From assembly GCF_050320075.1 (NCBI RefSeq), contig NZ_CP190018.1: DNA of 64,000 nt; one strand, written 5' to 3'. Each line of letters starts with the position of its first letter. The stretch's first letter is position 1. This document shows, piece after piece, positions 34,613 through 64,000 of this stretch. The notes under the pieces were generated by a model. The model saw only the letters and a list, made by a program, of their open reading frames with translations. It was not told the origin of the DNA and did no database searches. Made by a program: the position numbers and the translations under genes. Source of the DNA: Escherichia coli. GTDB taxonomy: Bacteria; Pseudomonadota; Gammaproteobacteria; Enterobacterales; Enterobacteriaceae.

Positions 34613-35722
34613 ATGAACGAACAATCCCAGGCCAAATCACCAGAAGCCTTGCGCGCAATGGTCGCCGGGACACTGGCCAATTTTCAGCACCCAACCCTGA
34701 AGCATAACCTCACCACGCTGAAAGCGTTGCACCATGTCGCCTGGATGGATGACACGTTGCATGTGGAACTGGTTATGCCATTCGTCTGGCATAGCGCGTT
34801 CGAAGAGTTAAAAGAGCAATGTAGCGCCGAACTGCTGCGCATCACCGGGGCGAAAGCTATCGACTGGAAACTGTCGCACAATATCGCCACCTTAAAACGC
34901 GTGAAGAATCAGCCGGGAATTAACGGCGTGAAGAACATCATTGCGGTCAGCTCCGGTAAAGGCGGCGTGGGTAAATCCTCCACGGCGGTAAACCTGGCGC
35001 TGGCACTGGCGGCGGAAGGGGCGAAAGTCGGCATTCTGGACGCCGATATCTATGGCCCATCAATACCCACCATGCTGGGTGCAGAAAATCAGCGTCCAAC
35101 TTCGCCGGACGGTACCCATATGGCACCGATTATGTCTCATGGACTGGCAACCAATTCAATTGGTTATCTGGTCACTGACGACAATGCGATGGTGTGGCGT
35201 GGTCCGATGGCGAGCAAGGCGTTAATGCAGATGTTGCAGGAAACCTTGTGGCCGGATCTCGACTATCTGGTGCTTGATATGCCGCCAGGCACCGGTGACA
35301 TTCAATTGACACTGGCACAAAACATACCAGTAACTGGCGCGGTAGTGGTCACCACTCCGCAGGACATTGCGTTGATCGATGCGAAAAAAGGCATTGTGAT
35401 GTTCGAGAAAGTCGAGGTTCCGGTGCTCGGTATTGTCGAGAACATGAGTGTGCATATTTGCAGTAACTGTGGTCACCATGAACCGATTTTCGGTACCGGT
35501 GGTGCAGAGAAACTGGCCGAGAAATATCACACGCAGTTGCTGGGGCAGATGCCGTTACACATCTCCTTACGTGAAGATCTCGATAAAGGCACGCCAACGG
35601 TTATCAGCCGTCCGGAGAGCGAATTTACCGCTATCTACCGCCAGCTGGCTGACCGCGTTGCAGCCCAGCTTTATTGGCAGGGAGAAGTCATTCCTGGCGA
35701 GATTTCCTTCCGCGCGGTCTAA
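34613..35722 (+). CDS. mrp: Fe-S cluster carrier ATPase Mrp/ApbC
   Basis: Start MNEQSQ preceded by AAGGAG. 369 aa. P-loop GKGGVGKS. Confidence 0.9.
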   Translation: MNEQSQAKSPEALRAMVAGTLANFQHPTLKHNLTTLKALHHVAWMDDTLHVELVMPFVWHSAFEELKEQCSAELLRITGAKAIDWKLSHNIATLKRVKNQPGINGVKNIIAVSSGKGGVGKSSTAVNLALALAAEGAKVGILDADIYGPSIPTMLGAENQRPTSPDGTHMAPIMSHGLATNSIGYLVTDDNAMVWRGPMASKALMQMLQETLWPDLDYLVLDMPPGTGDIQLTLAQNIPVTGAVVVTTPQDIALIDAKKGIVMFEKVEVPVLGIVENMSVHICSNCGHHEPIFGTGGAEKLAEKYHTQLLGQMPLHISLREDLDKGTPTVISRPESEFTAIYRQLADRVAAQLYWQGEVIPGEISFRAV

Positions 35723-35984
35723 CGCGTATTAACCTTTTTGGTTGTTTTTCATACACCGCAGAGATGTTACATTGATGCGGTGTATTTGTTTTTGCCGCAT
35801 TAATGAACACTTATTTAATGCTGCAAATATTCTGCGGACCTTCGTCCGAAACTCTATAAAGTCGATTGATCGTACAGGCAATGCTTCATTATCATCCTTC
35901 GTGGCTGTGTAGTGGATGTACAGCTATAGTTTGTTATGCACTCATTCTATCCAGGCATAACCTTTACTACAGGGATAACGTTCA

Positions 35985-36266
35985 ATGAATAAGTACTGGC
36001 TGTCAGGAATTATTTTTCTTGCCTATGGAATGGCTTCTCCCGCGTTCTCTTCACAGACTGCCACATTAACGATTAATGGCAGGATCAGTCCCCCAACATG
36101 CAGTATGGCTATGGTTAATGGTCAACCTCAACAGTATTGTGGTCAGTTAACGTATGATGTTGATACCCGTCATCAGGTTTCTTCGCCAGTCAAAGGTGTA
36201 ACGACAGAAGTGGTTGTTGCAGGTAGCGATAGCAAACGTCGAATCGTGTTAAATCGCTACGATTAA
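35985..36266 (+). CDS. yehE: Small secreted protein YehE
   Basis: 93 aa with signal peptide, upstream of the fimbrial genes. Confidence 0.7.
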   Translation: MNKYWLSGIIFLAYGMASPAFSSQTATLTINGRISPPTCSMAMVNGQPQQYCGQLTYDVDTRHQVSSPVKGVTTEVVVAGSDSKRRIVLNRYD

Positions 36267-36561
36267 TTTGCCACCCTGGTTTTTTAATCGGATTTAGAAA
36301 GCTGAAATCATTCGTGTGAATGATTTCAGCTTTTTTATTTATATCAATAATACCACTTACAAAAATCTGCATTAATTAATAGATGTGATAAATATTTAAT
36401 ATGCTTAAGTATTTGTTGTGTTTATATTGCAATAGTTAATTTGTTTTAAATCAATAAAACAATATGTTTACATTGCGGCAACTTTTTTGATGTGAGAAAT
36501 TTGTTTCCAAGAGATACAGACTCTTAACAACCAAAAAATAAATTTTATTAAGGAACATATT

Positions 36562-37104
36562 ATGAAACGTTCAATTATTGCTGCCGCTGTCTTTTCTTCT
36601 TTTTTTATGAGCGCTGGGGTATTTGCCGCAGACGTTGATACCGGAACATTAACCATTAAAGGGAATATTGCAGAATCTCCGTGTAAATTCGAAGCGGGTG
36701 GCGATTCAGTAAGTATTAATATGCCAACTGTACCAACCACTGTCTTTGAAGGTAAAGCTAAATACTCGACCTATGATGATGCAGTCGGTGTAACCAGCAG
36801 CATGTTAAAAATTAGCTGTCCGAAAGAAGTTGCTGGTGTAAAACTCTCGTTGATTACCAACGATAAAATAACCGGAAACGATAAGGCGATAGCCAGTAGC
36901 AACGATACCGTGGGGTACTATCTCTATTTAGGTGATAACAGCGATGTCCTGGATGTTTCTGCACCTTTTAACATTGAGAGTTATAAAACAGCGGAAGGTC
37001 AATATGCTATTCCGTTTAAAGCAAAATACCTGAAGCTGACAGATAATTCAGTGCAATCAGGTGATGTGTTATCTTCTCTGGTTATGCGTGTGGCGCAGGA
37101 TTAA
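36562..37104 (+). CDS. yehD: Chaperone-usher fimbrial major subunit
   Basis: 180 aa, signal peptide, fimbrial subunit fold. First gene of yehDCBA. Confidence 0.8.
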   Translation: MKRSIIAAAVFSSFFMSAGVFAADVDTGTLTIKGNIAESPCKFEAGGDSVSINMPTVPTTVFEGKAKYSTYDDAVGVTSSMLKISCPKEVAGVKLSLITNDKITGNDKAIASSNDTVGYYLYLGDNSDVLDVSAPFNIESYKTAEGQYAIPFKAKYLKLTDNSVQSGDVLSSLVMRVAQD

Positions 37105-37184
37105 TAAATAAAACTTCAAGTTTCTCCAGGTAATAAACATGGCCGCTATCCCCATGGCGGCCTTTTAATTTAAGAGGCATTAAG

Positions 37185-37859
37185 ATGAAAGGATTATTAG
37201 CTTTACTCATTTCTTCTATGGTCCTTCCTGCACATGCCGGTATTGTTATCTACGGGACGCGTATTATTTACCCGGCAGAAAATAAAGAAGTGATGGTGCA
37301 GTTGATGAATCAGGGAAACCGTTCTTCGCTGCTGCAGGCGTGGATTGATGATGGCGATACGTCGTTACCACCAGAAAAAATTCAGGTTCCTTTCATGTTA
37401 ACGCCACCAGTGGCAAAAATAGGGGCAAATTCCGGGCAGCAAGTAAAAATCAAAATTATGCCGAATAAACTGCCCACTAATAAAGAGAGCATTTTTTATC
37501 TGAATGTTCTGGATATTCCACCAAATAGTCCAGAGCAAGAGGGCAAGAATGCACTGAAATTTGCAATGCAAAACAGAATTAAATTGTTTTACCGGCCTGC
37601 GGGTATTGCGCCAGTAAATAAAGCGACATTTAAAAAGTTACTGGTAAATCGCAGTGGCAATGGATTGGTGATAAAAAATGACTCAGCAAATTGGGTAACG
37701 ATTTCGGATGTCAAAGCTAATAATGTCAAAGTCAATTATGAAACTATTATGATTGCCCCCTTAGAAAGTCAGAGTATTAATGTCAAAAGTAATAATGCGA
37801 ATAACTGGTATCTGACCATTATCGATGACCATGGCAACTATATTAGTGACAAAATTTAA
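37185..37859 (+). CDS. yehC: Periplasmic fimbrial chaperone (PapD-like)
   Basis: 224 aa, signal peptide. Start may differ. Confidence 0.8.
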   Translation: MKGLLALLISSMVLPAHAGIVIYGTRIIYPAENKEVMVQLMNQGNRSSLLQAWIDDGDTSLPPEKIQVPFMLTPPVAKIGANSGQQVKIKIMPNKLPTNKESIFYLNVLDIPPNSPEQEGKNALKFAMQNRIKLFYRPAGIAPVNKATFKKLLVNRSGNGLVIKNDSANWVTISDVKANNVKVNYETIMIAPLESQSINVKSNNANNWYLTIIDDHGNYISDKI

Positions 37860-37874
37860 TTGCAGGAGCTGCCT

Positions 37875-40355
37875 ATGTTGAGAATGACCCCACTTGCATC
37901 AGCAATCGTAGCGTTATTGCTCGGCATTGAAGCTTATGCAGCTGAAGAAACCTTTGATACCCATTTTATGATAGGTGGAATGAAAGACCAGCAGGTTGCA
38001 AATATTCGTCTTGATGATAATCAACCCTTGCCGGGGCAGTATGACATCGATATTTATGTCAATAAGCAATGGCGCGGGAAATATGAGATCATTGTTAAAG
38101 ACAACCCGCAAGAAACATGTATATCAAGGGAAATTATCAAGCGGTTAGGCATTAATACCGATAACTTTGCCAGCGGTAAGCAATGTTTAACATTTGAGCA
38201 ACTTGTTCAGGGTGGGAGCTATACCTGGGATATCGGAGTTTTTCGTCTCGATTTCAGTGTCCCGCAGGCGTGGGTGGAAGAACTGGAAAGTGGCTATGTT
38301 CCACCGGAAAACTGGGAGCGGGGTATTAATGCGTTTTATACCTCTTATTATGTGAGTCAGTATTACAGCGACTATAAAGCGTCGGGTAATAGCAAGAGTA
38401 CATATGTACGTTTTAACAGCGGGTTAAACTTACTGGGGTGGCAACTGCATTCTGATGCCAGTTTCAGTAAAACAAATAGCAATCCAGGGGGGTGGAAAAG
38501 CAATACCCTGTATCTGGAACGTGGATTTGCCCAACTTCTCGGCACGCTTCGCGTGGGTGATATGTACACATCAAGCGATATTTTTGATTCTGTTCGCTTC
38601 AGCGGTGTGCGGTTGTTTCGTGATATGCAGATGTTGCCTAACTCGAAACAGAATTTTACTCCACGGGTGCAGGGGATTGCTCAGAGTAACGCGCTGGTAA
38701 CTATTGAACAGAACGGTTTTGTGGTTTATCAGAAAGAGGTTCCTCCTGGCCCGTTTGCGATTACAGATTTGCAGTTGGCCGGTGGTGGAGCAGATCTTGA
38801 TGTCAGCGTGAAAGAGGCGGACGGTTCGGTAACCACCTATCTGGTGCCTTATGCAGCGGTGCCGAATATGCTGCAACCTGGCGTGTCGAAATATGATTTT
38901 GCGGCGGGTCGTAGCCATATTGAAGGGGCGAGCAAACAAAGTGATTTTGTCCAGGCGGGTTATCAGTATGGTTTTAATAACTTATTGACGCTGTATGGCG
39001 GATCGATGGTCGCGAATAATTATTACGCGTTCACTTTGGGGACTGGCTGGAATACACGCATTGGTGCCATTTCCGTCGATGCCACGAAGTCGCATAGTAA
39101 ACAAGACAACGGCGATGTGTTTGACGGGCAAAGTTATCAAATTGCCTACAACAAATTTGTGAGCCAAACGTCGACGCGTTTTGGTCTGGCGGCCTGGCGT
39201 TATTCGTCGCGTGATTACCGGACATTTAACGATCATGTTTGGGCAAACAATAAAGATAATTATCGCCGTGATGAAAACGATATCTATGACATTGCCGATT
39301 ATTACCAGAACGATTTTGGCCGTAAAAATAGCTTTTCTGCCAATATGAGCCAGTCATTGCCAGAAGGCTGGGGTTCTGTGTCCTTAAGTACGTTATGGCG
39401 AGATTACTGGGGGCGTAGCGGCAGCAGTAAGGATTATCAGTTGAGTTATTCCAACAACCTGCGACGGATAAGCTATACCCTCGCGGCAAGCCAGGCTTAT
39501 GACGAGAATCATCATGAAGAGAAACGTTTTAATATTTTTATATCGATTCCCTTTGATTGGGGTGATGACGTTACGACGCCTCGTCGGCAAATATATATGT
39601 CTAACTCAACGACGTTTGATGATCAGGGTTTTGCCTCAAATAATACGGGATTATCGGGAACCGTTGGAAGCCGGGATCAATTTAACTATGGGGTCAACCT
39701 GAGTCATCAGCATCAGGGAAATGAAACGACAGCTGGAGCGAATTTAACCTGGAACGCGCCGGTTGCGACAGTGAATGGCAGTTATAGTCAGTCGAGTACT
39801 TATCGACAGGCTGGAGCCAGTGTTTCAGGGGGCATTGTCGCCTGGTCGGAGGGCGTTAATCTGGCGAACCGTCTTTCCGAAACGTTTGCAGTGATGAATG
39901 CGCCAGGAATTAAAGATGCTTATGTCAATGGGCAAAAATATCGCACAACAAACCGTAATGGAGTGGTGGTATACGACGGAATGACACCTTATCGGGAAAA
40001 TCACCTGATGCTGGATGTGTCGCAAAGCGATAGCGAAGCAGAATTGCGCGGTAACCGGAAAATTGCCGCACCTTATCGCGGCGCGGTTGTACTGGTTAAT
40101 TTTGATACCGATCAGCGCAAGCCCTGGTTTATAAAAGCGTTAAGAACGGATGGGCAACCATTAACGTTTGGTTATGAAGTCAATGATATCCATGGTCATA
40201 ATATTGGCGTTGTCGGCCAGGGAAGCCAGTTATTTATTCGCACCAATGAAGTACCGCCGTCGGTTAATGTGGCAATTAATAAGCAACAAGGACTTTCATG
40301 CACAATCACCTTCGGTAAAGAGATTGATGAAAGTAGAAATTATATTTGCCAGTAA
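37875..40355 (+). CDS. yehB: Outer-membrane fimbrial usher
   Basis: ORF 37860..40355. Start at MLRMTPLAS gives 826 aa. Usher-family sequence. Confidence 0.85.
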   Translation: MLRMTPLASAIVALLLGIEAYAAEETFDTHFMIGGMKDQQVANIRLDDNQPLPGQYDIDIYVNKQWRGKYEIIVKDNPQETCISREIIKRLGINTDNFASGKQCLTFEQLVQGGSYTWDIGVFRLDFSVPQAWVEELESGYVPPENWERGINAFYTSYYVSQYYSDYKASGNSKSTYVRFNSGLNLLGWQLHSDASFSKTNSNPGGWKSNTLYLERGFAQLLGTLRVGDMYTSSDIFDSVRFSGVRLFRDMQMLPNSKQNFTPRVQGIAQSNALVTIEQNGFVVYQKEVPPGPFAITDLQLAGGGADLDVSVKEADGSVTTYLVPYAAVPNMLQPGVSKYDFAAGRSHIEGASKQSDFVQAGYQYGFNNLLTLYGGSMVANNYYAFTLGTGWNTRIGAISVDATKSHSKQDNGDVFDGQSYQIAYNKFVSQTSTRFGLAAWRYSSRDYRTFNDHVWANNKDNYRRDENDIYDIADYYQNDFGRKNSFSANMSQSLPEGWGSVSLSTLWRDYWGRSGSSKDYQLSYSNNLRRISYTLAASQAYDENHHEEKRFNIFISIPFDWGDDVTTPRRQIYMSNSTTFDDQGFASNNTGLSGTVGSRDQFNYGVNLSHQHQGNETTAGANLTWNAPVATVNGSYSQSSTYRQAGASVSGGIVAWSEGVNLANRLSETFAVMNAPGIKDAYVNGQKYRTTNRNGVVVYDGMTPYRENHLMLDVSQSDSEAELRGNRKIAAPYRGAVVLVNFDTDQRKPWFIKALRTDGQPLTFGYEVNDIHGHNIGVVGQGSQLFIRTNEVPPSVNVAINKQQGLSCTITFGKEIDESRNYICQ

Positions 40356-40370
40356 TAGTCAGGTGGTTCT

Positions 40371-41405
40371 ATGAAAATTCGCATAATGCTATTTATATTA
40401 ATGATGATGGTTATGCCAGTGAGCTATGCAGCATGTTATAGTGAGTTATCTGTTCAGCACAATTTGGTTGTTCAGGGGGATTTTGCACTTACTCAAACAC
40501 AAATGGCGACCTATGAGCATAATTTTAATGATTCGTCATGCGTGAGTACAAATACTATCACCCCTATGAGCCCGTCGGATATTATTGTTGGACTTTATAA
40601 CGATACCATTAAATTAAATTTACATTTTGAATGGACCAATAAAAATAACATCACGTTGTCAAATAATCAGACCAGTTTCACCAATGGTTATTCGGTAACG
40701 GTGACACCTGCAGCCAGTAATGCAAAAGTGAATGTTTCTGCGGGGGGCGGCGGTTCAGTGATGATTAATGGAGTTGCGACATTATCCAGTGCTTCATCAT
40801 CGACACGCGGGAGTGCCGCAGTACAATTTCTACTGTGTTTATTAGGTGGCAAGTCATGGGATGCATGTGTAAATAGCTACAGAAATGCATTGGCACAAAA
40901 TGCAGGTGTCTATTCCTTTAATCTGGCATTGTCATATAACCCGATAACAACGACCTGCAAACCGGACGATTTATTAATTACTTTAGAGAGTACTCCCGTT
41001 TCACAATTACCAGCCACAGGTAACAAAGCAACAATAAATAGTAAAAAAGGAGATATTATTCTGCGTTGTAAAAATTTATTAGGTCAACAAAATCAAACAT
41101 CACGAAAAATGCAGGTGTATTTATCAAGTTCTGATTTGTGGGGCAGTAGTAACACGATCCTGAAAGGTGCGGAAGATAATGGCGTAGGGTTTATTCTTGA
41201 AAGTAATGGTTCGCCAGTCACACTTTTAAATATCACTAACAGCAGTAAAGGATATACAAATTTAAAGGAAGTTGCTGCGAAGTCAAAACTTACAGATACA
41301 ACGGTTTCAATTCCGATAACTGCCAGTTACTACGTCTACGATACAAACAAAGTTAAATCTGGCGCACTGGAGGCAACCGCATTAATCAACGTGAAATACG
41401 ACTAA
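40371..41405 (+). CDS. yehA: Fimbrial adhesin-like subunit
   Basis: 344 aa, signal peptide. Last gene of the fimbrial operon. Confidence 0.8.
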   Translation: MKIRIMLFILMMMVMPVSYAACYSELSVQHNLVVQGDFALTQTQMATYEHNFNDSSCVSTNTITPMSPSDIIVGLYNDTIKLNLHFEWTNKNNITLSNNQTSFTNGYSVTVTPAASNAKVNVSAGGGGSVMINGVATLSSASSSTRGSAAVQFLLCLLGGKSWDACVNSYRNALAQNAGVYSFNLALSYNPITTTCKPDDLLITLESTPVSQLPATGNKATINSKKGDIILRCKNLLGQQNQTSRKMQVYLSSSDLWGSSNTILKGAEDNGVGFILESNGSPVTLLNITNSSKGYTNLKEVAAKSKLTDTTVSIPITASYYVYDTNKVKSGALEATALINVKYD

Positions 41406-41454
41406 TAACAAGCAAGACGAGCAAGTGGCTAATAATAAAAAATAACAAGGTGTC

Positions 41455-41487
41455 TGCATTTCCCCCTCATGATGAGGGGGCTTTTTT
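41455..41487 (+). terminator. Intrinsic terminator after yehA
   Basis: Hairpin tccccctcatgatgaggggg followed by ttttttt. Abuts the rcnB stop on the opposite strand. Confidence 0.7.
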
Positions 41488-41825
41488 TAGCGATGATAAA
41501 AAATCTCACCGTCGTAGGCTTTAATGATTTTACCGTCGGTGTCGCTGATCAACACGTACGCGCCACCCATATAGGTCCAGTGCGTCCCGGCATCAGGCGC
41601 GGGCAGGTTACGTAACTGCCACTGCTTAATGTTGTACTCATCGGTGCGGTACATCTCTGGGACGGTATCGCCTGGTTTGAAATGCTTAAAGTCAGCAATG
41701 AAACTGCTTAACTCATACTTAGAAATTCCCGAGGTATTGGTCGAACCCGCGGTGGCTGGTGCGGCCCAGGCGGCACTGGTAACCAGCAAAAGCGCACCCA
41801 GCAACATCTTATTTTTAATGGTCAT
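41487..41825 (-). CDS. rcnB: Periplasmic nickel/cobalt homeostasis protein
   Basis: ORF 41487..42005. Start at MTIKNKMLLGALLLVTSAAWA signal peptide gives 112 aa. Confidence 0.8.
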   Translation of the reverse strand: MTIKNKMLLGALLLVTSAAWAAPATAGSTNTSGISKYELSSFIADFKHFKPGDTVPEMYRTDEYNIKQWQLRNLPAPDAGTHWTYMGGAYVLISDTDGKIIKAYDGEIFYHR

Positions 41826-51272: not shown

Positions 51273-51279
51273 TACGCCT

Positions 51280-51350
51280 TATACGAACAGCACTACCCCG
51301 TATGACGGAAAAGGCGTTTACGTCGCATCCGGCATAAAAACACGCGCACT
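51280..51350. repeat. REP-like element downstream of fbaB
   Basis: gcctgatacgccttatacg ... cgtcgcatccggcat resembles REP palindromes. Confidence 0.5.
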
Positions 51351-51354
51351 TTGC

Positions 51355-51387
51355 TACGGCTTCCCTATCGGGAGGCCGTTTTTTTGT
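51355..51387 (+). terminator. Intrinsic terminator (fbaB)
   Basis: Hairpin ggcttccc-tatc-gggaggcc followed by gttttttt. Confidence 0.6.
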
Positions 51388-51389
51388 GC

Positions 51390-52095
51390 ACAGAAAACCC
51401 CCAGCTAGGCTGGGGGTTCCGGAAAGCTTTCAGCTTTGAGCCAGTTATTCAAACCCCTTTTGATTTGTTAAAACACCTTGCGGTCTGGCAACTGCAAGTG
51501 TCAAACAAGAAATCAAAAGGGGGTCCCAATGGGGGACGAAAAGAGCTTAGCGCACACCCGCTGGAACTGTAAATATCACATAGTTTTTGCGCCGAAATAC
51601 CGAAGACTGGCGTTTTACGGAGAGAAGCGTAGGGCGATAGGCAGTATTTTGAGAAAGCTGTGTGAGTGGAAAAGCGTACGGATTCTGGAAGCAGAGTGCC
51701 GCGCAGATCATATCCATATGCTTGTGGAAATCCCACCCAAAATGAGCGTATCCGGCTTTATGGGATATCTGAAAGGGAAAAGCAGTCTGATGCTTTACGA
51801 GCAGTTTGGGGATTTGAAATTCAAATACAGAAACAGGGAGTTCTGGTGCCGAGGGTACTATGTCGATACGGTGGGTAAGAACACGGCGAAGATACAGGAC
51901 TACATAAAGCACCAGCTTGAAGAGGATAAAATGGGGGAGCAGTTATCGATTCCATATCCGGGCAGCCCGTTTACGGGCCGTAAGTAACGAAGTTGAATGC
52001 AAATGTCAGATCGTATGCGCCTGTTAGGGCGCGGCTGGTAACAGAGCCTTACAGGCGCATTTGAAAAACCTCCGGCTATGCCGGAGGATATTTAT
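51390..52095 (+). mobile_element. IS200-family insertion sequence (boundaries approximate)
   Basis: Contains an IS200 TnpA gene. Left-end perfect hairpin aacccccagc-tag-gctgggggtt (51396-51418) and subterminal hairpins 52015-52060 and 52069-52090. About 0.7 kb, as expected for IS200. Confidence 0.75.
51529..51987 (+). CDS. tnpA: IS200 transposase TnpA (HUH/Y1 family)
   Basis: MGDEKSLAHTRWNCKYHIVFAPKYRR ... HIHMLVEIPPK (HuH motif), 152 aa. Near-identical to recalled Salmonella/E. coli IS200 TnpA. Confidence 0.9.
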   Translation: MGDEKSLAHTRWNCKYHIVFAPKYRRLAFYGEKRRAIGSILRKLCEWKSVRILEAECRADHIHMLVEIPPKMSVSGFMGYLKGKSSLMLYEQFGDLKFKYRNREFWCRGYYVDTVGKNTAKIQDYIKHQLEEDKMGEQLSIPYPGSPFTGRK

Positions 52096-52156
52096 TGCCT
52101 GTCATTCTGATTAATTTTCGAATTGTCGTTTTTGTGATCGTTATCTCGACATTTAA

Positions 52157-54356
<2,200 letters not shown>

Positions 54357-59440: not shown

Positions 59441-59845
59441 GATCGTATGTGCCTTTATGATTGGTCTGTAGATAGTGTAGAGCAGAAAACAAAAGGTGGA
59501 GTCAGAACAGGATGAAAGTCGGAGGATAAAAAGTCAGTTCAAGTATGGAGGATTCAGTGGTTACCACCAGGAGCTTGCAATGGGGACAGCGAATACTAAC
59601 GGCTGCCACCGATAAATTTCAAAAAAGAGCATATACCTAATATTCAACTAAACAGTGGCATCTTCAATATAATATATTAAAGCCCCCATGGAGTTACCCT
59701 GAAGGGCCTCAATGTCCGTAATTCCTACTTATGTAGGAAATGTTGTACAGAACATTTATTATAATCCTATTCAATTATAATAATCATGCCATTATTATAT
59801 TTAAACACTAGAGAGTGTCGTTGGTATTTAATGGGGGAAGGTGAG

Positions 59846-60163
59846 ATGAAAAAGATAGCTGCTATATCATTAATTAGTATTTTTATTATGTCTGGTTGTG
59901 CTGTGCATAATGATGAGACAAGTATCGGTAAATTTGGTCTTGCATATAAAAGTAATATTCAGCGTAAACTCGATAACCAATACTACACCGAAGCCGAAGC
60001 TTCTTTAGCCAGGGGTAGAATATCTGGTGCAGAAAATATAGTAAAAAATGATGCAACTCATTTCTGTGTTACTCAGGGCAAAAAAATGCAAATAGTTGAG
60101 CTGAAGACAGAAGGTGTAGGATTACATGGTGTCGCTCGTCTGACATTCAAATGTGGAGAGTGA
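59846..60163 (+). CDS. yegR: Small lipoprotein YegR
   Basis: ORF 59786..60163. Start at MKKIAAISLISIFIMSGC (lipobox) gives 105 aa. Confidence 0.7.
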   Translation: MKKIAAISLISIFIMSGCAVHNDETSIGKFGLAYKSNIQRKLDNQYYTEAEASLARGRISGAENIVKNDATHFCVTQGKKMQIVELKTEGVGLHGVARLTFKCGE

Positions 60164-60322
60164 GAATATTTTTTGGTAAGCGTCAAATATGCGCGTTCTG
60201 GCTGTGCGTAGCCGGAACCTGTGGGAGCACGATGCCGATAAGTGAAAGGCATCGTGCTATGAAGGAGGATTCTATCGATGTGGTCAATGGAAGACGGTTA
60301 CCAGAGATAGGGCTTATGCATA

Positions 60323-60349
60323 AAAAAATAAGCCCGTGTAAGGGAGATT
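60323..60349. repeat. P2-type attachment-site core (attL)
   Basis: aaaaaataagcccgtgtaagggagatt matches the 27-bp P2 att core as I recall it. Lies ~80 bp from the integrase stop. Confidence 0.65.
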
Positions 60350-60428
60350 TAGGGTGTCACCAGTAGGGGCTTTCAACGGTACAATGCGGGTTTGAGCGGC
60401 ATAAATTACCACTGAAAGCCCTTAAACG

Positions 60429-61442
60429 TTACTCTACTGTGGACACTGTGTGGACACTCTCGACCTCAGTACCACCTCTTAGCGGATTAAGAGAAATGGC
60501 GTCCTGAAGGTACTCTGGCGCAAAATGAGCGTAAACCATAGTTTGCTCAATCCGCGTGTGACCTAGTATCCGTTGTAGCGTGATAATACTTCCTCCATTA
60601 ATCATGAAATGAGTGGCAAAGCTGTGCCTTAGTGCATGTGTAGCTTGCCCCATTGGCAAATCCGGTTTTATTGCTTTCATTGTTCGTCTGAAGCGAGGGT
60701 AATCAGCATCAGGGAATAAAAAACCTCGTTTGTTATCCGCGATCATTTTGGCAACAGCCTCTGAGATCGGGACGGTGCGTGGTTTGTTTGTTTTCGTTTT
60801 AACAAACGTGACGCGGTTATGGATGATATTTTCTGCTTTCAAACGAGCTGCTTCTCCCCAACGTGCTCCAGTACTCAGGCAAAGAATCGCAATCTTTTTG
60901 TTGTCGCCGTCAAGAGCAGCAAGCAGTAAGGCAATTTCTTCCTGCGTGAGATAGCCTGTGTCTGGTTTTTCCTCCTTAAGCCTTTTTGTCCCTCTGATAG
61001 GGTGCTCACCAAAGAATAACTCCGCTTCAATCAGGGCTGTAAACATGCCGCTAATACATGTTAAATCACGATTGATACTCGAAGGTTTAATACCCTGACT
61101 TCTTCGGGTGGCGCAGTACTGGCTGATAAGCGATTTCGTAATTTGAAATGCGCATGGGTCATTCGTTATTTTTGTGAAGATTTCAATTTTCCCAAGATTA
61201 GATTTCCCATGCTCTTCGTGTTTACCCTTTAAATCCCACCAGATCTGTGTCAGCTCCGACAGACGTCGCTTGTCTGTTGGTTTTGATAGCCATTCTTTAT
61301 TGTGGTGGTTGTACAACGTGTATTTCTCGAAAGCGACAGCTTCGCTTTTCTTATCAAACTTCCTACGGATGCGTTTTCCATTACGTCCAGTAGGGCGGAT
61401 GTCCACTTCATATCGACCATCATCGAGTTTTTTGATTGCCAT
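60429..61442 (-). CDS. int: P2-type tyrosine integrase
   Basis: 337 aa. Catalytic R..HxxR..Y region (HALRHSFATHF, MVYAHF). Confidence 0.9.
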   Translation of the reverse strand: MAIKKLDDGRYEVDIRPTGRNGKRIRRKFDKKSEAVAFEKYTLYNHHNKEWLSKPTDKRRLSELTQIWWDLKGKHEEHGKSNLGKIEIFTKITNDPCAFQITKSLISQYCATRRSQGIKPSSINRDLTCISGMFTALIEAELFFGEHPIRGTKRLKEEKPDTGYLTQEEIALLLAALDGDNKKIAILCLSTGARWGEAARLKAENIIHNRVTFVKTKTNKPRTVPISEAVAKMIADNKRGFLFPDADYPRFRRTMKAIKPDLPMGQATHALRHSFATHFMINGGSIITLQRILGHTRIEQTMVYAHFAPEYLQDAISLNPLRGGTEVESVHTVSTVE

Positions 61443-61557
61443 CAGAAAACCCTCCGAGTGGTGTGTTTTTTTGCGACTACTAATCGCTTTTTTCGTGGTG
61501 GCTGAAATTTAGCCACCAATAGTAGGCACTTGTGATGAATATATTCACGATGAATTG

Positions 61558-61857
61558 TTAACCAGTCTTTTGACCGGAGTGGGGCGACGTTGTTTCGTTT
61601 TGCCCAAAGTGTGCGAGAGCGGGCGCAATTTGCCCGGACTCAGGAGCGATCTGATTGGTCATGAACCATAAAGTGTATTTGGTGAATTGTGGGGTCTGCA
61701 GGATGTTCATCATGACATCTGTTGGAGGTGTTGAACGACCACTTTCATAGTAACTCAGCGTGCCATACGGAACCCCTGTTAAATCAGCAAGTTGTTGTCT
61801 GCTCAAATACTCTGATTTTCGCATTAAGACTATCTTCTCGCTTATCGTGTTTGACAT
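61558..61857 (-). CDS. C: P2-type immunity repressor C
   Basis: 99 aa. HTH (LSRQQLADLTGVPYGTLSYYESG). Divergent from cox. Confidence 0.85.
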   Translation of the reverse strand: MSNTISEKIVLMRKSEYLSRQQLADLTGVPYGTLSYYESGRSTPPTDVMMNILQTPQFTKYTLWFMTNQIAPESGQIAPALAHFGQNETTSPHSGQKTG

Positions 61858-61971
61858 GGTGTTTAGATCTCAATAGTATTTAGTTTAGATGTAGATTGTT
61901 TAGTGCTTGGATGTGGGCACTAAAAGGCATTATAAGACATTAAACGCAATTCATGAGGGCTAGAGGACGAC
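61858..61971. promoter_or_regulatory. Pe/Pc lysis-lysogeny switch region with direct-repeat operators
   Basis: Intergenic region between divergent C and cox with direct repeats tttagat (61862, 61884) and face-to-face promoters expected for P2. Confidence 0.55.
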
Positions 61972-62247
61972 ATGAGCAAGCAAGTAACACTCATGACTGA
62001 TGCGATTCCTTATCAGGAGTTCGCAAAACTAATAGGAAAATCGACAGGAGCGGTTCGTCGGATGATCGATAAAGGAAAGCTGCCTGTAATTAATATGACC
62101 GATCCACAATCAGCTTCAGGTCGTGCAGGTGAATATTGGGTATACCTTCCGGCATGGAATAACGGACTAAAACTGGCTTATGAAAGCCGCCCTAAAGAGA
62201 TTCGTGACGGCTGGTTGATGTGGTTAGGTCTCGGTGAACCACGTTAA
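61972..62247 (+). CDS. cox: P2-type Cox excisionase/repressor
   Basis: 91 aa, first gene of the early operon. Confidence 0.85.
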   Translation: MSKQVTLMTDAIPYQEFAKLIGKSTGAVRRMIDKGKLPVINMTDPQSASGRAGEYWVYLPAWNNGLKLAYESRPKEIRDGWLMWLGLGEPR

Positions 62248-62428
62248 GGAGAACCGTATGAATGAGCCTCGTTGTATTGCTCAGTTACTGCGTAACGAAA
62301 GCCCCAGGGCGATTGACTTCACCATCACCCACGGTAAGGGGCGTAAGGGAATCATTATCCGCACCAAAAAACAGAGTCCGTTAAAAAAGGCTCTGACCTT
62401 TCTGAAAAGCCGGAGGGTATGGAAATGA
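62234..62428 (+). CDS. P2 early small protein (orf78-like)
   Basis: 64-aa ORF overlapping the cox end. Position in early operon. Confidence 0.5.
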   Translation: MNHVKENRMNEPRCIAQLLRNESPRAIDFTITHGKGRKGIIIRTKKQSPLKKALTFLKSRRVWK

Positions 62429-62925
62429 CAGTGATGACGCTCAATCTCGTTGAAAAACAGCCAGCAGCTATGCGCCGGATAATTGGCAAGCATCTTGCCG
62501 TCCCTCGCTGGCAGGATACATGTGATTATTATAATCAGATGATGGAGCGCGAACGGCTAACGGTTTGCTTTCATGCACAGTTAAAACAGCGTCACGCAAC
62601 GATGCGTTTTGAAGAAATGAACGACGTCGAACGTGAACGGCTGGTTTGTGCAATTGATGAATTGCGTGGGGCATTCTCAAAACGCCGTCAGGTCGGTGCA
62701 AGTGAGTATGCATATATTAGTTTTTTAACAGTCAGCCAGCGACGTACTTTATTTATGCACGCACGACTGACAGAAAAAGAATTCAACCAGCCGTACTGGC
62801 GAATTAATGAAGAATCATGTTACTGGCGTGATGCTTTATTCCGTGCATTACGTGAATTATTCAGTCTGTTTGAGTATGCACCGACAATTCTGACGTCGGT
62901 AAAACCAGAGCAATATCTGCATTAA
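62419..62925 (+). CDS. B: P2-type replication protein B
   Basis: 168 aa. Position and size match P2 B. Confidence 0.75.
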   Translation: MEMTVMTLNLVEKQPAAMRRIIGKHLAVPRWQDTCDYYNQMMERERLTVCFHAQLKQRHATMRFEEMNDVERERLVCAIDELRGAFSKRRQVGASEYAYISFLTVSQRRTLFMHARLTEKEFNQPYWRINEESCYWRDALFRALRELFSLFEYAPTILTSVKPEQYLH

Positions 62926-62988
62926 ATAATTAACCAGATTTTTTAACGCACTTAATCGTGCGGGGCTTCTTTTTGCCTGGAGAAAGTC

Positions 62989-63213
62989 ATGCATACAGTT
63001 TCTGAAAATCAGTGCGGTAAATACGCATTACTGCTGCAACAGGCCAGAACCGAAGCACAGGCCGACGCTGCGACGCGCTTTTCTTCTCATCTTGACGCCA
63101 TGATTCGCCATATCACAAAGGCGGAGTTATCCCGCGTGGAGATAGTCGAGCTGCTCAGTCAGGAGTCGGAAAAATTTCACAATATCGGATTGTCTCGCGG
63201 GGAGGTGCTTTGA
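62989..63213 (+). CDS. P2 early small protein (orf80-like)
   Basis: 74-aa ORF in the early operon. Confidence 0.5.
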
Positions 63214-63515
63214 TGTCCTGTTCTCATTCAGTTGTATTACTGAATAACGCCTTAAAAATCGCCGTTATGGAAAATGGTGATTTATCTCTTATTCAACTTT
63301 GTCTTGATAAAGAAAAACGCGACATAACTGAATCTGTTATCGCGATTTATCAGAATGAATTAAACCTCCTGTCTGATGTGGTCAATTTACTTGTTAAACG
63401 CGCGGTATTCCACAAGCAAATTTCCTCCGTGGATGAACTGACAAAATTAACGACAGAAATCGTCAGCTATTGCGCTGATGAATTTAAGAAACTGAACGAC
63501 AAAAGGAACTGGTAA
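63210..63515 (+). CDS. P2 early small protein (orf81-like)
   Basis: 101 aa. ATGA overlap with the previous ORF. Confidence 0.5.
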
Positions 63516-63739
63516 TGCCGGACAACGTAGATTTCATTCAGGAACAACAGGCTGAATTACTGGAGCGCCAGATTAACGCGGCAAGGGTAAAACATTGCGG
63601 TGTTTCTGCGCTGGTTTGCGAAGAGTGTGACGTGCCAATACCTGCTGCCCGTCGTGCGGCTTATCCGTCAGCCACGCGTTGTGTTTCCTGTCAGTCAGTC
63701 TTTGAAGCAAAAAACAAACATTACCGGAGAACGGCATGA
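63515..63739 (+). CDS. DksA/TraR-type C4 zinc-finger protein (orf82-like)
   Basis: 74 aa with CxxC...CxxC (CEECDV...CVSCQ). Confidence 0.65.
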   Translation: MPDNVDFIQEQQAELLERQINAARVKHCGVSALVCEECDVPIPAARRAAYPSATRCVSCQSVFEAKNKHYRRTA

Positions 63740-64000
63740 GTATTCGTATTGAAATTGGCGAACGTTATGTCGTTACCAGTGACAGCTTTCAGTTTATTCT
63801 CCACGAGAAAAAGAGAGCGGAAAGCGGTAAAAACGCCGGTCAGGAATGGCTGTCGGTGGTTGGTTATTACCCGAAATTAAGCCAGCTCGTTTCCGGCCTG
63901 ATGCATCACGATATTCTGACCGGAAGCGCAAAGTCTTTTGCTGATTTAAACGCGCAGGTTGAGCAACTCAGCAAGCGTTGTTCAGAGGCTTTTGGCTCAT
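63736..64000 (+). CDS. P2 early protein (orf83-like), 3'-truncated by window edge
   Basis: ATG at 63736 with ATGA overlap. Open to the window end. Confidence 0.5.
   Translation, partial: MSIRIEIGERYVVTSDSFQFILHEKKRAESGKNAGQEWLSVVGYYPKLSQLVSGLMHHDILTGSAKSFADLNAQVEQLSKRCSEAFGS

Follow-up and report, generated by a model that had tools for sequence, protein, structure and literature searches.

A 64,000-nucleotide stretch of Escherichia coli DNA (contig NZ_CP190018.1 of the assembly GCF_050320075.1), called the window throughout, very probably carries an intact locus for the Yeh chaperone-usher pilus, which comprises the four-gene operon yehDCBA and a separate gene, yehE, located upstream (Table 1). 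The 5.8 Kbp concerned were 100% identical to a part of the E. coli chromosome of strain CFSAN061763 in which the genes are annotated as yehE, yehD, yehC, yehB and yehA, confirming the name yehDCBA given in an earlier, sequence-only reading of the same DNA. As CFSAN061763 is not identical to the window outside the yeh region (95–99.7% identity, collinear, with one insertion sequence [IS] difference), its annotation served as a guide only. The locus of strain K-12 (yehE and yehDCBA, b2112-b2108) has the same genes in the same order between the same flanks (apbC/mrp and rcnB), and the gene lengths are equal except for that of the annotated YehC. In the window, metG (- strand) and apbC/mrp (+ strand) lie upstream, and rcnB and rcnA (- strand), followed by rcnR, thiM and thiD, lie downstream; the apbC-rcnB synteny was also found in E. 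albertii and Citrobacter. A megablast search with positions 35700-41500 gave matches in 5423 of 5426 complete E. coli genomes, in 5222 of which at least 80% of the query matched in one place. We found no argument in the sequence against the identification as yeh. The locus and the ligand of its adhesin have already been described, and the operon is a real but ordinary, core-associated pilus operon of E. coli: Wurpel et al. (PMC3559732) classed Yeh among the core-associated fimbriae, found it intact in 92% of strains and reported the same locus in Salmonella and Citrobacter, and Yeh has been placed in the gamma-4 clade, together with Yad and Stc, in the usher phylogeny of Nuccio and Baumler (PMC7098969, PMC12778044).

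The full subunit-chaperone-usher-adhesin set claimed in the sequence-only reading is indeed present, as the open reading frames (ORFs) were found where it had placed them and their Pfam architectures are complete. YehD matched the pilin family PF00419 with 31.2 bits (cut-off 25.6) and possesses Cys41 and Cys86. The chaperone YehC retains the two cleft residues, namely Arg8 in the mature sequence GIVIYGTR, as numbered from a putative cleavage site, and K115, equivalent to Lys112, in NRIKLFYRP. In the usher YehB, the PapC_N (E-value 3e-34), Usher (3e-196, covering positions 1-549 of the 549-position profile) and PapC_C (9e-9) domains were all detected, and the protein scored 1752 bits against NCBIfam NF011763 (cut-off 933); its length of 826 amino acids is counted from the ATG at 37875, the program-made ORF list having started the frame at a TTG at 37860. 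YehA consists of a signal peptide (residues 1-20), a receptor-binding domain (21-193, nucleotides 40431-40949) and a pilin domain (~194-344), the last matching PF00419 over residues 189-344 (E-value 1.5e-21), and scored 679 bits against NCBIfam NF011788 (cut-off 395). Judged from the sequence, the locus has the components of a classical chaperone-usher system: usher, two-domain chaperone, pilin and two-domain adhesin.

We found neither frameshifts nor truncations relative to the orthologues, either of which would have overturned the earlier interpretation. The ORFs match the K-12 gene lengths and contain no internal stop, and the amino acid identities to K-12 were 92.6% for YehE, 99.4% for YehD, 98.2% for YehC, 97.9% for YehB and 97.4% for YehA, at a nucleotide divergence of the locus of ~3%. 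The ratios of nonsynonymous to synonymous divergence (dN/dS), calculated against K-12 and O157, were 0.02-0.09 across yehD, yehC and yehB (0.02-0.07 for yehD alone), which shows purifying selection. The intergenic gaps within yehDCBA are 15-80 nt long, those of yehC-yehB-yehA being 15 nt each, and the four genes are one operon, closed by the terminator that faces rcnB. Between yehD and yehC we noticed a stem-loop that is kept in Escherichia, with a compensatory change from G-C to A-U in E. albertii, and this structure probably acts as an attenuator or an mRNA-stabilising hairpin setting how much pilin is made relative to the assembly machinery. The same hairpin (window 37141-37185; K-12 sequence L002, 6602-6646) bears on the length of YehC, which is annotated in K-12 as 239 amino acids long from an ATG lying inside it. 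Since the hairpin loop in the window has an extra C, that start is out of frame here. The 239-residue form is an annotation artefact, and the conserved form is the 224-residue protein that starts with MKGLL behind the ribosome-binding site AAGAGG, the length annotated by RefSeq in other strains.

The receptor of the YehA adhesin had been described as unknown in the sequence-only reading, a statement that is now out of date. The domain spanning residues 21-193 is identical at 171 of 173 positions to the protein in PDB 9N4G (E-value 3.5e-108), and 9N4H and 9N4I match it as well (E-value about 1e-107). These three entries represent the receptor-binding domain of the Yeh adhesin of strain UTI89 (PMC12778044), in which the proteins are named by operon order following the Hultgren laboratory, so that YehD of UTI89 is YehA of K-12 and YehA of UTI89 is YehD of K-12. 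The crystallised domain was reported to fold into a beta jelly-roll carrying a new kind of alpha-helical flap, and to bind pectin or pectic galactan, hyaluronic acid and fibrous luminal material of the mouse colon (PMC12778044; Sci Adv 2026); dietary fibre in the lumen, not the mucosa, was bound by the adhesin domain in another study (PMC11784811). Binding was increased by the substitutions W143K and R151E and was not significantly affected by S49A or Y150A (PMC12778044). In the mouse gut, a UTI89 fim yeh double mutant showed a 1.6- to 3.9-fold competitive defect relative to the fim mutant (PMC12778044). YehA of the window keeps the candidate pocket residues S49 and Y150, the flap residues W143 and R151, the disulfides C2-C37 and C136-C146, and the hydrophobic patch formed by I51, V102 and I112. 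By its sequence and the residues named above, it qualifies as a Yeh-type, that is, pectin-binding type, adhesin. Three points weigh against this assignment or its importance. The domain in the window departs from the crystallised one at two residues, having N85 for S and A166 for T; S49A and Y150A do not abolish binding, so that S49 and Y150 are no more than candidates for the pocket (PMC12778044); and the reported phenotype in vivo is small and confined to a fim-negative background (PMC12778044). If the assignment holds, the YehA domain would attach to the pectin or pectic galactan of plant fibre inside the gut lumen, a modest aid to colonisation.

The position occupied by yehA can house a second type of adhesin. 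The adhesin gene located between yehB and rcnB in O157:H7 was found to be 100% identical to PDB 8V9V, which was described as Sakai YhlD of a sister, Yeh-like (Yhl) pilus, with the same fold including the helical flap, and which was reported to bind the colonic mucosa and not luminal fibre (PMC12778044). The Yhl adhesin is thus an allele at the apbC-rcnB locus of yehA and not a gene of a separate locus. The Yhl-type protein shares 35% identity with YehA of the window overall, and 10-30% in the receptor-binding domain. Among the 5426 complete genomes, the receptor-binding domain of the window type was found in 4606 and that of the Yhl type in 650, at a median of one place per genome; these counts are consistent with mutually exclusive alleles, albeit short of proof. 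The O157 haplotype is divergent over the whole interval from yehE to yehA, its synonymous divergence (dS) outside the adhesin gene amounting to 0.67-1.2, and apbC and rcnB remain 93-99% identical. We also encountered a chimera: between apbC and the end of yehB, and once more in rcnB, strain 500010 shares 96-100% identity with the window, whereas its yehA is 40-65% identical to that of the window and 90-94% to that of O157, with breakpoints near window positions 40300 and 41408. The fully divergent haplotype was detected in 323 genomes as against 650 with the Yhl-type domain, and therefore about half of the Yhl-type adhesins may sit on Yeh-type backbones, an estimate from total counts and not from a table of individual genomes. 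A yeh-like cluster at nhaR in O157, which we take to be that of Low and Elpers, was considered as a source of the Yhl adhesin and rejected; its adhesin gene is a pseudogene unlike either type, and its usher is only 59% identical.

We turn to the region upstream of yehD. The sequence-only reading had taken the operon to span 35985-41405, which stands for the yehDCBA genes but not for the start, as 35985 is the first base of yehE, a separate gene that it had missed; the AT-rich tract hence lies between yehE and yehD. The description of this tract as ~300 bp of very AT-rich DNA proved accurate. Positions 36270-36560 (291 bp) have a G+C content (GC) of 25.4%, against 49.7% for the whole window, and form the lowest trough among all 291-bp stretches of the 64 Kbp; 0.11% of such stretches are as GC-poor, and every one of them falls inside the trough. 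The yeh locus as a whole is GC-poor too (41.8%). In its AT-richness, the tract has the property expected of a locus silenced by H-NS, and the claim that the operon is cryptic and H-NS-silenced agrees with published data for K-12, although it rests on the literature and the sequence itself does not prove silencing. In K-12, yehDCBA was described as a cryptic operon of the H-NS regulon, with H-NS binding taken from cited chromatin immunoprecipitation studies and a 3.6-fold increase upon SlyA over-expression (PMC5797941). The same paper cites Korea et al. (2010) for yeh being poorly expressed, repressed by H-NS and functional under constitutive drive. BolA over-expression was reported to raise yehD and yehC (PMC4337573). 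In laboratory culture, expression would be expected to be low, with H-NS acting as a repressor and over-expression of SlyA (or BolA, per one paper) raising it.

"Cryptic and H-NS-silenced" fairly sums up the behaviour in laboratory culture, but the locus is better described as conditionally expressed. On balance, we lean towards a locus that is not silent and whose AT-rich region serves chiefly as a regulated promoter and leader, plus the terminator of yehE; with about the same modest preference, we regard H-NS as one input among SlyA, BolA, CsrA, ethanolamine and low temperature, so that the operon is cryptic in the laboratory only. Fusions to the yeh promoter showed activity in static lysogeny broth that was higher at 28 C (Low 2006, cited in PMC7098969). 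In enterohaemorrhagic E. coli (EHEC), ethanolamine raises YehD, as monitored with YehD-FLAG, and CsrA binds the yehD leader directly (PMC11287998). Up-regulation of yeh in inflammatory bowel disease is cited in PMC12778044, and the colonisation phenotype of the UTI89 yeh deletion described in that paper implies that the native promoter fires in vivo. On the other side stand the membership of K-12 yehDCBA in the H-NS regulon and its poor expression in standard culture (PMC5797941). Conditional expression and repression by H-NS are nevertheless compatible and do not exclude each other.

The evidence from the sequence for conditional expression is a conserved non-coding block in the spacer. Over its ~120 bp, the window and the O157 allele differ at only ~3 positions, despite the dS of 0.67-1.2 in the adjacent genes, and the sub-blocks TATATTGCA, AATCAATAAAACAAT, TTACATTGCGG and TGTGAGAA are also retained in Citrobacter; invariant sub-blocks lie at 36423-36431, 36450-36463, 36468-36478 and 36491-36498. 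That the block is nearly invariant across such highly diverged alleles points to specific sites rather than to mere AT-richness. Downstream of it, the ribosome-binding sequence of yehD, AAGGAA, shares bases with the GGA core of the site at which CsrA was reported to bind the yehD leader of EHEC (PMC11287998), and the window departs from the O157 sequence just 3' of this core. No sigma-70 consensus site was found in the block, and there were fewer sites than in shuffled sequences. A scan with the high-affinity H-NS motif TCGATAAATT showed no enrichment and carries little information on silencing: only two matches, with two mismatches each, lie in or at the edge of the tract, and the count over the whole window was 88, as compared with 70 +/- 8 expected. 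A scan of positions 35600-41700 against Rfam yielded no credible RNA family; the sole match, Hrs1 on the terminator, scored 23.6 bits where 56.4 were required.

A strong terminator hairpin (36296-36335, -23.6 kcal/mol) lies within the first ~70 bp of the tract. When the sequences from the window, K-12, O157:H7, E. albertii and Citrobacter (n=5) were aligned, 90% of cells paired, and compensatory changes were found in five pairs, a number equalled by none of 500 shuffles and by no slid control. Given a strong, covarying terminator directly after yehE, the gene most likely forms a transcription unit by itself, with yehDCBA beginning from the remaining ~225 bp. A five-gene operon yehEDCBA, in which the AT-rich tract would be an internal spacer and not the promoter region of the operon, appears improbable to us. 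Such an operon would fit with the invariable adjacency and shared orientation of yehE and yehD, and Elpers and Hensel cloned ECs2914-2918 from the ATG of yehE to obtain Yeh fimbriae (PMC7098969). Nevertheless, the covariation-backed hairpin and its T-run separate the two genes, a 225-bp conserved non-coding region precedes yehD, published work takes yehD as the first gene (PMC11287998, PMC5797941), and four genes make up the minimal operon for the pili of UTI89 (PMC12778044).

YehE is a protein of 93 amino acids with a signal peptide and two Cys residues. In a profile-profile comparison by hhalign, its residues 1-41 are homologous to residues 1-43 of YehD (probability 92.9%, E-value 3.7e-7), a stretch that takes in the signal peptide together with the first strand and Cys. 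Beyond these ~41 residues, our searches returned no match for the rest of the protein; a PDB search with YehE gave none, and BLASTP against YehD and YehA was not significant. An AlphaFold2 model built from 12 sequences had a mean predicted local distance difference test score (pLDDT) of 49.6, too low for a fold search. YehE is under weaker constraint than the pilus genes (dN/dS 0.29-0.52) and was found to be confined to Escherichia, Shigella and Citrobacter-like genomes. When 1.8 billion representatives were searched exhaustively, only 32 matches were recovered, mostly proteins of ~90 amino acids; the few long repetitive proteins among them were judged spurious. Each locus that we inspected, whether from E. 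coli, E. albertii or Citrobacter, has yehE directly 5' of yehD. From its amino-terminal similarity, yehE looks to be derived in part from a pilin gene. It is attractive to speculate, although we consider it rather unlikely, that YehE is a conserved, pilin-derived mini-protein acting in the biogenesis or control of the Yeh pilus; if so, it could occupy the chaperone or the groove of the last subunit and thereby act as terminator, anchor or titrating regulator. Besides the amino-terminal homology and the position next to yehD, the idea draws on the carboxy-terminal IVLNRYD of YehE, which resembles by eye the INVKYD at the end of YehA, a likeness without statistical support.

That the operon is a decaying, non-functional remnant on its way to pseudogenes is very hard to believe: disrupted copies do exist elsewhere (IS903B in the usher gene of match H5, IS1 in yehA of match H17, and an internal stop at codon 782 of the annotated pseudogene yehB of O157:H7 Z563, L003 3178-5658), and 92% rather than all of the strains carry the locus intact (PMC3559732), but the five ORFs of the window are all full length with complete domains, the low dN/dS of yehD, yehC and yehB and the strong constraint on the regulatory block of yehD both speak against decay, the near-identical K-12 operon works when expressed (PMC5797941), and the deletion of yeh in UTI89 has a phenotype in vivo (PMC12778044).

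By analogy with the family, from which the order of assembly is taken, all Yeh products would be exported by Sec, and YehC would fold and cap the subunits through donor-strand complementation. YehB would then recruit the two-domain adhesin YehA first and polymerise YehD beneath it by donor-strand exchange, so that a thin, flexible fibre tipped by YehA results. Thin flexible fibres were indeed seen by electron microscopy for the yeh cluster of O157 Sakai, a divergent allele, together with increased adhesion to HeLa cells (PMC7098969). This Sakai Yhl haplotype has the same five-gene layout between apbC and rcnB as the window, and differs in its adhesin. The Stc system of Salmonella (stcABCD) was reported to be orthologous and to occupy the same place in the chromosome (PMC3559732, PMC12778044). 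Among the NCBIfam models, YehC of the window matched StcB best, at 347 bits against a cut-off of 500, and this shortfall suggests that Stc is an orthologue at genus-level divergence. Type 1 (Fim) pili share with Yeh the classical chaperone-usher assembly and the two-domain tip adhesin. Fim is, however, a gamma-1 system with a rigid rod, the minor tip subunits FimF and FimG, and the invertible switch fimS, whereas Yeh is a thin, flexible gamma-4 pilus without minor subunits, and has no recombinase gene, convincing switch repeats or GATC in its control region. As candidates for a fimS-type switch, we found only short, AT-rich and imperfect inverted repeats, at a locus lacking a recombinase gene, and rejected them. 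GATC sites, as a pap-type Dam/Lrp switch would have, are absent from 36267-36561.

Table 1. Features of the yeh locus (window positions unless a sequence is named)
Feature	Position	Strand	Description
yehE	35985-36266	+	93 aa; exported DUF2574 protein (Pfam E-value 9e-51); annotated YehE family
AT-rich yehE-yehD intergenic region	36267-36561	no strand	25.1% GC; yehE terminator and yehD regulatory region/leader
Intrinsic terminator of yehE	36296-36341	+	18-bp stem, 4-nt loop, T-run; from terminator scan
Conserved non-coding block	36411-36531	+	presumed promoter, operator or 5' leader
yehD	36562-37104	+	180 aa; major pilin subunit; Pfam Fimbrial
GC-rich yehD-yehC stem-loop, then TTTTAATTT	37141-37162	+	-15.7 kcal/mol
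yehC	37185-37859	+	224 aa; periplasmic PapD-like chaperone; PapD_N E-value 3e-41, PapD_C E-value 3e-8
yehB	37875-40355	+	826 aa from ATG; outer-membrane usher; PapC_N, Usher and PapC_C
yehA	40371-41405	+	344 aa; two-domain tip adhesin; Pfam Fimbrial over residues 189-344 only
Yeh/Yhl allele positions	window 40371-41405; L003 5669-6703; L004 5667-6701; L005 4327-9029		
Terminator hairpin CCCCCTCATGATGAGGGGG and T-run	41462-41480	no strand	between convergent yehA and rcnB; -14.7 kcal/mol

Elsewhere in the window, several features unrelated to the pilus were noticed. On the - strand, within 16737-20170, both yehM (16737-18287 and 18345-19184) and yehL (19027-19677 and 19649-20170) are split into two ORFs, and the splits match genes flagged for internal stops or as frameshifted in the closely related CFSAN061763. 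Between fbaB and gatY (51273-52204), ~780 bp are missing from CFSAN061763; the segment matches a tnpA element of the IS200/IS605 family, which occurs elsewhere in up to 36 places per genome. A second AT-rich trough (59597-60011, ~31% GC) is located at yegR and adjoins the start of a P2-like prophage, which continues past the end of the window (region 59597-64000) and includes genes for an integrase (60429-61442, - strand), a repressor-like helix-turn-helix protein (61558-61857, - strand) and cox (61972-62247, + strand).

As a discovery, the finding has small value: practically all E. coli genomes carry an annotation of the locus, studies of its regulation exist, and the structure and ligand of the adhesin have been reported. 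Its worth lies in classification: the strain carries the intact Yeh-type allele, of the pectin-binding type, and not the mucosa-binding Yhl type, which is relevant for predicting attachment to plants or food and colonisation of the gut lumen. The side observations could help to tidy up a confusing nomenclature; they concern the allelism of Yeh with Yhl, the existence of chimeric operons, where yehE came from and the invariant block upstream of yehD.

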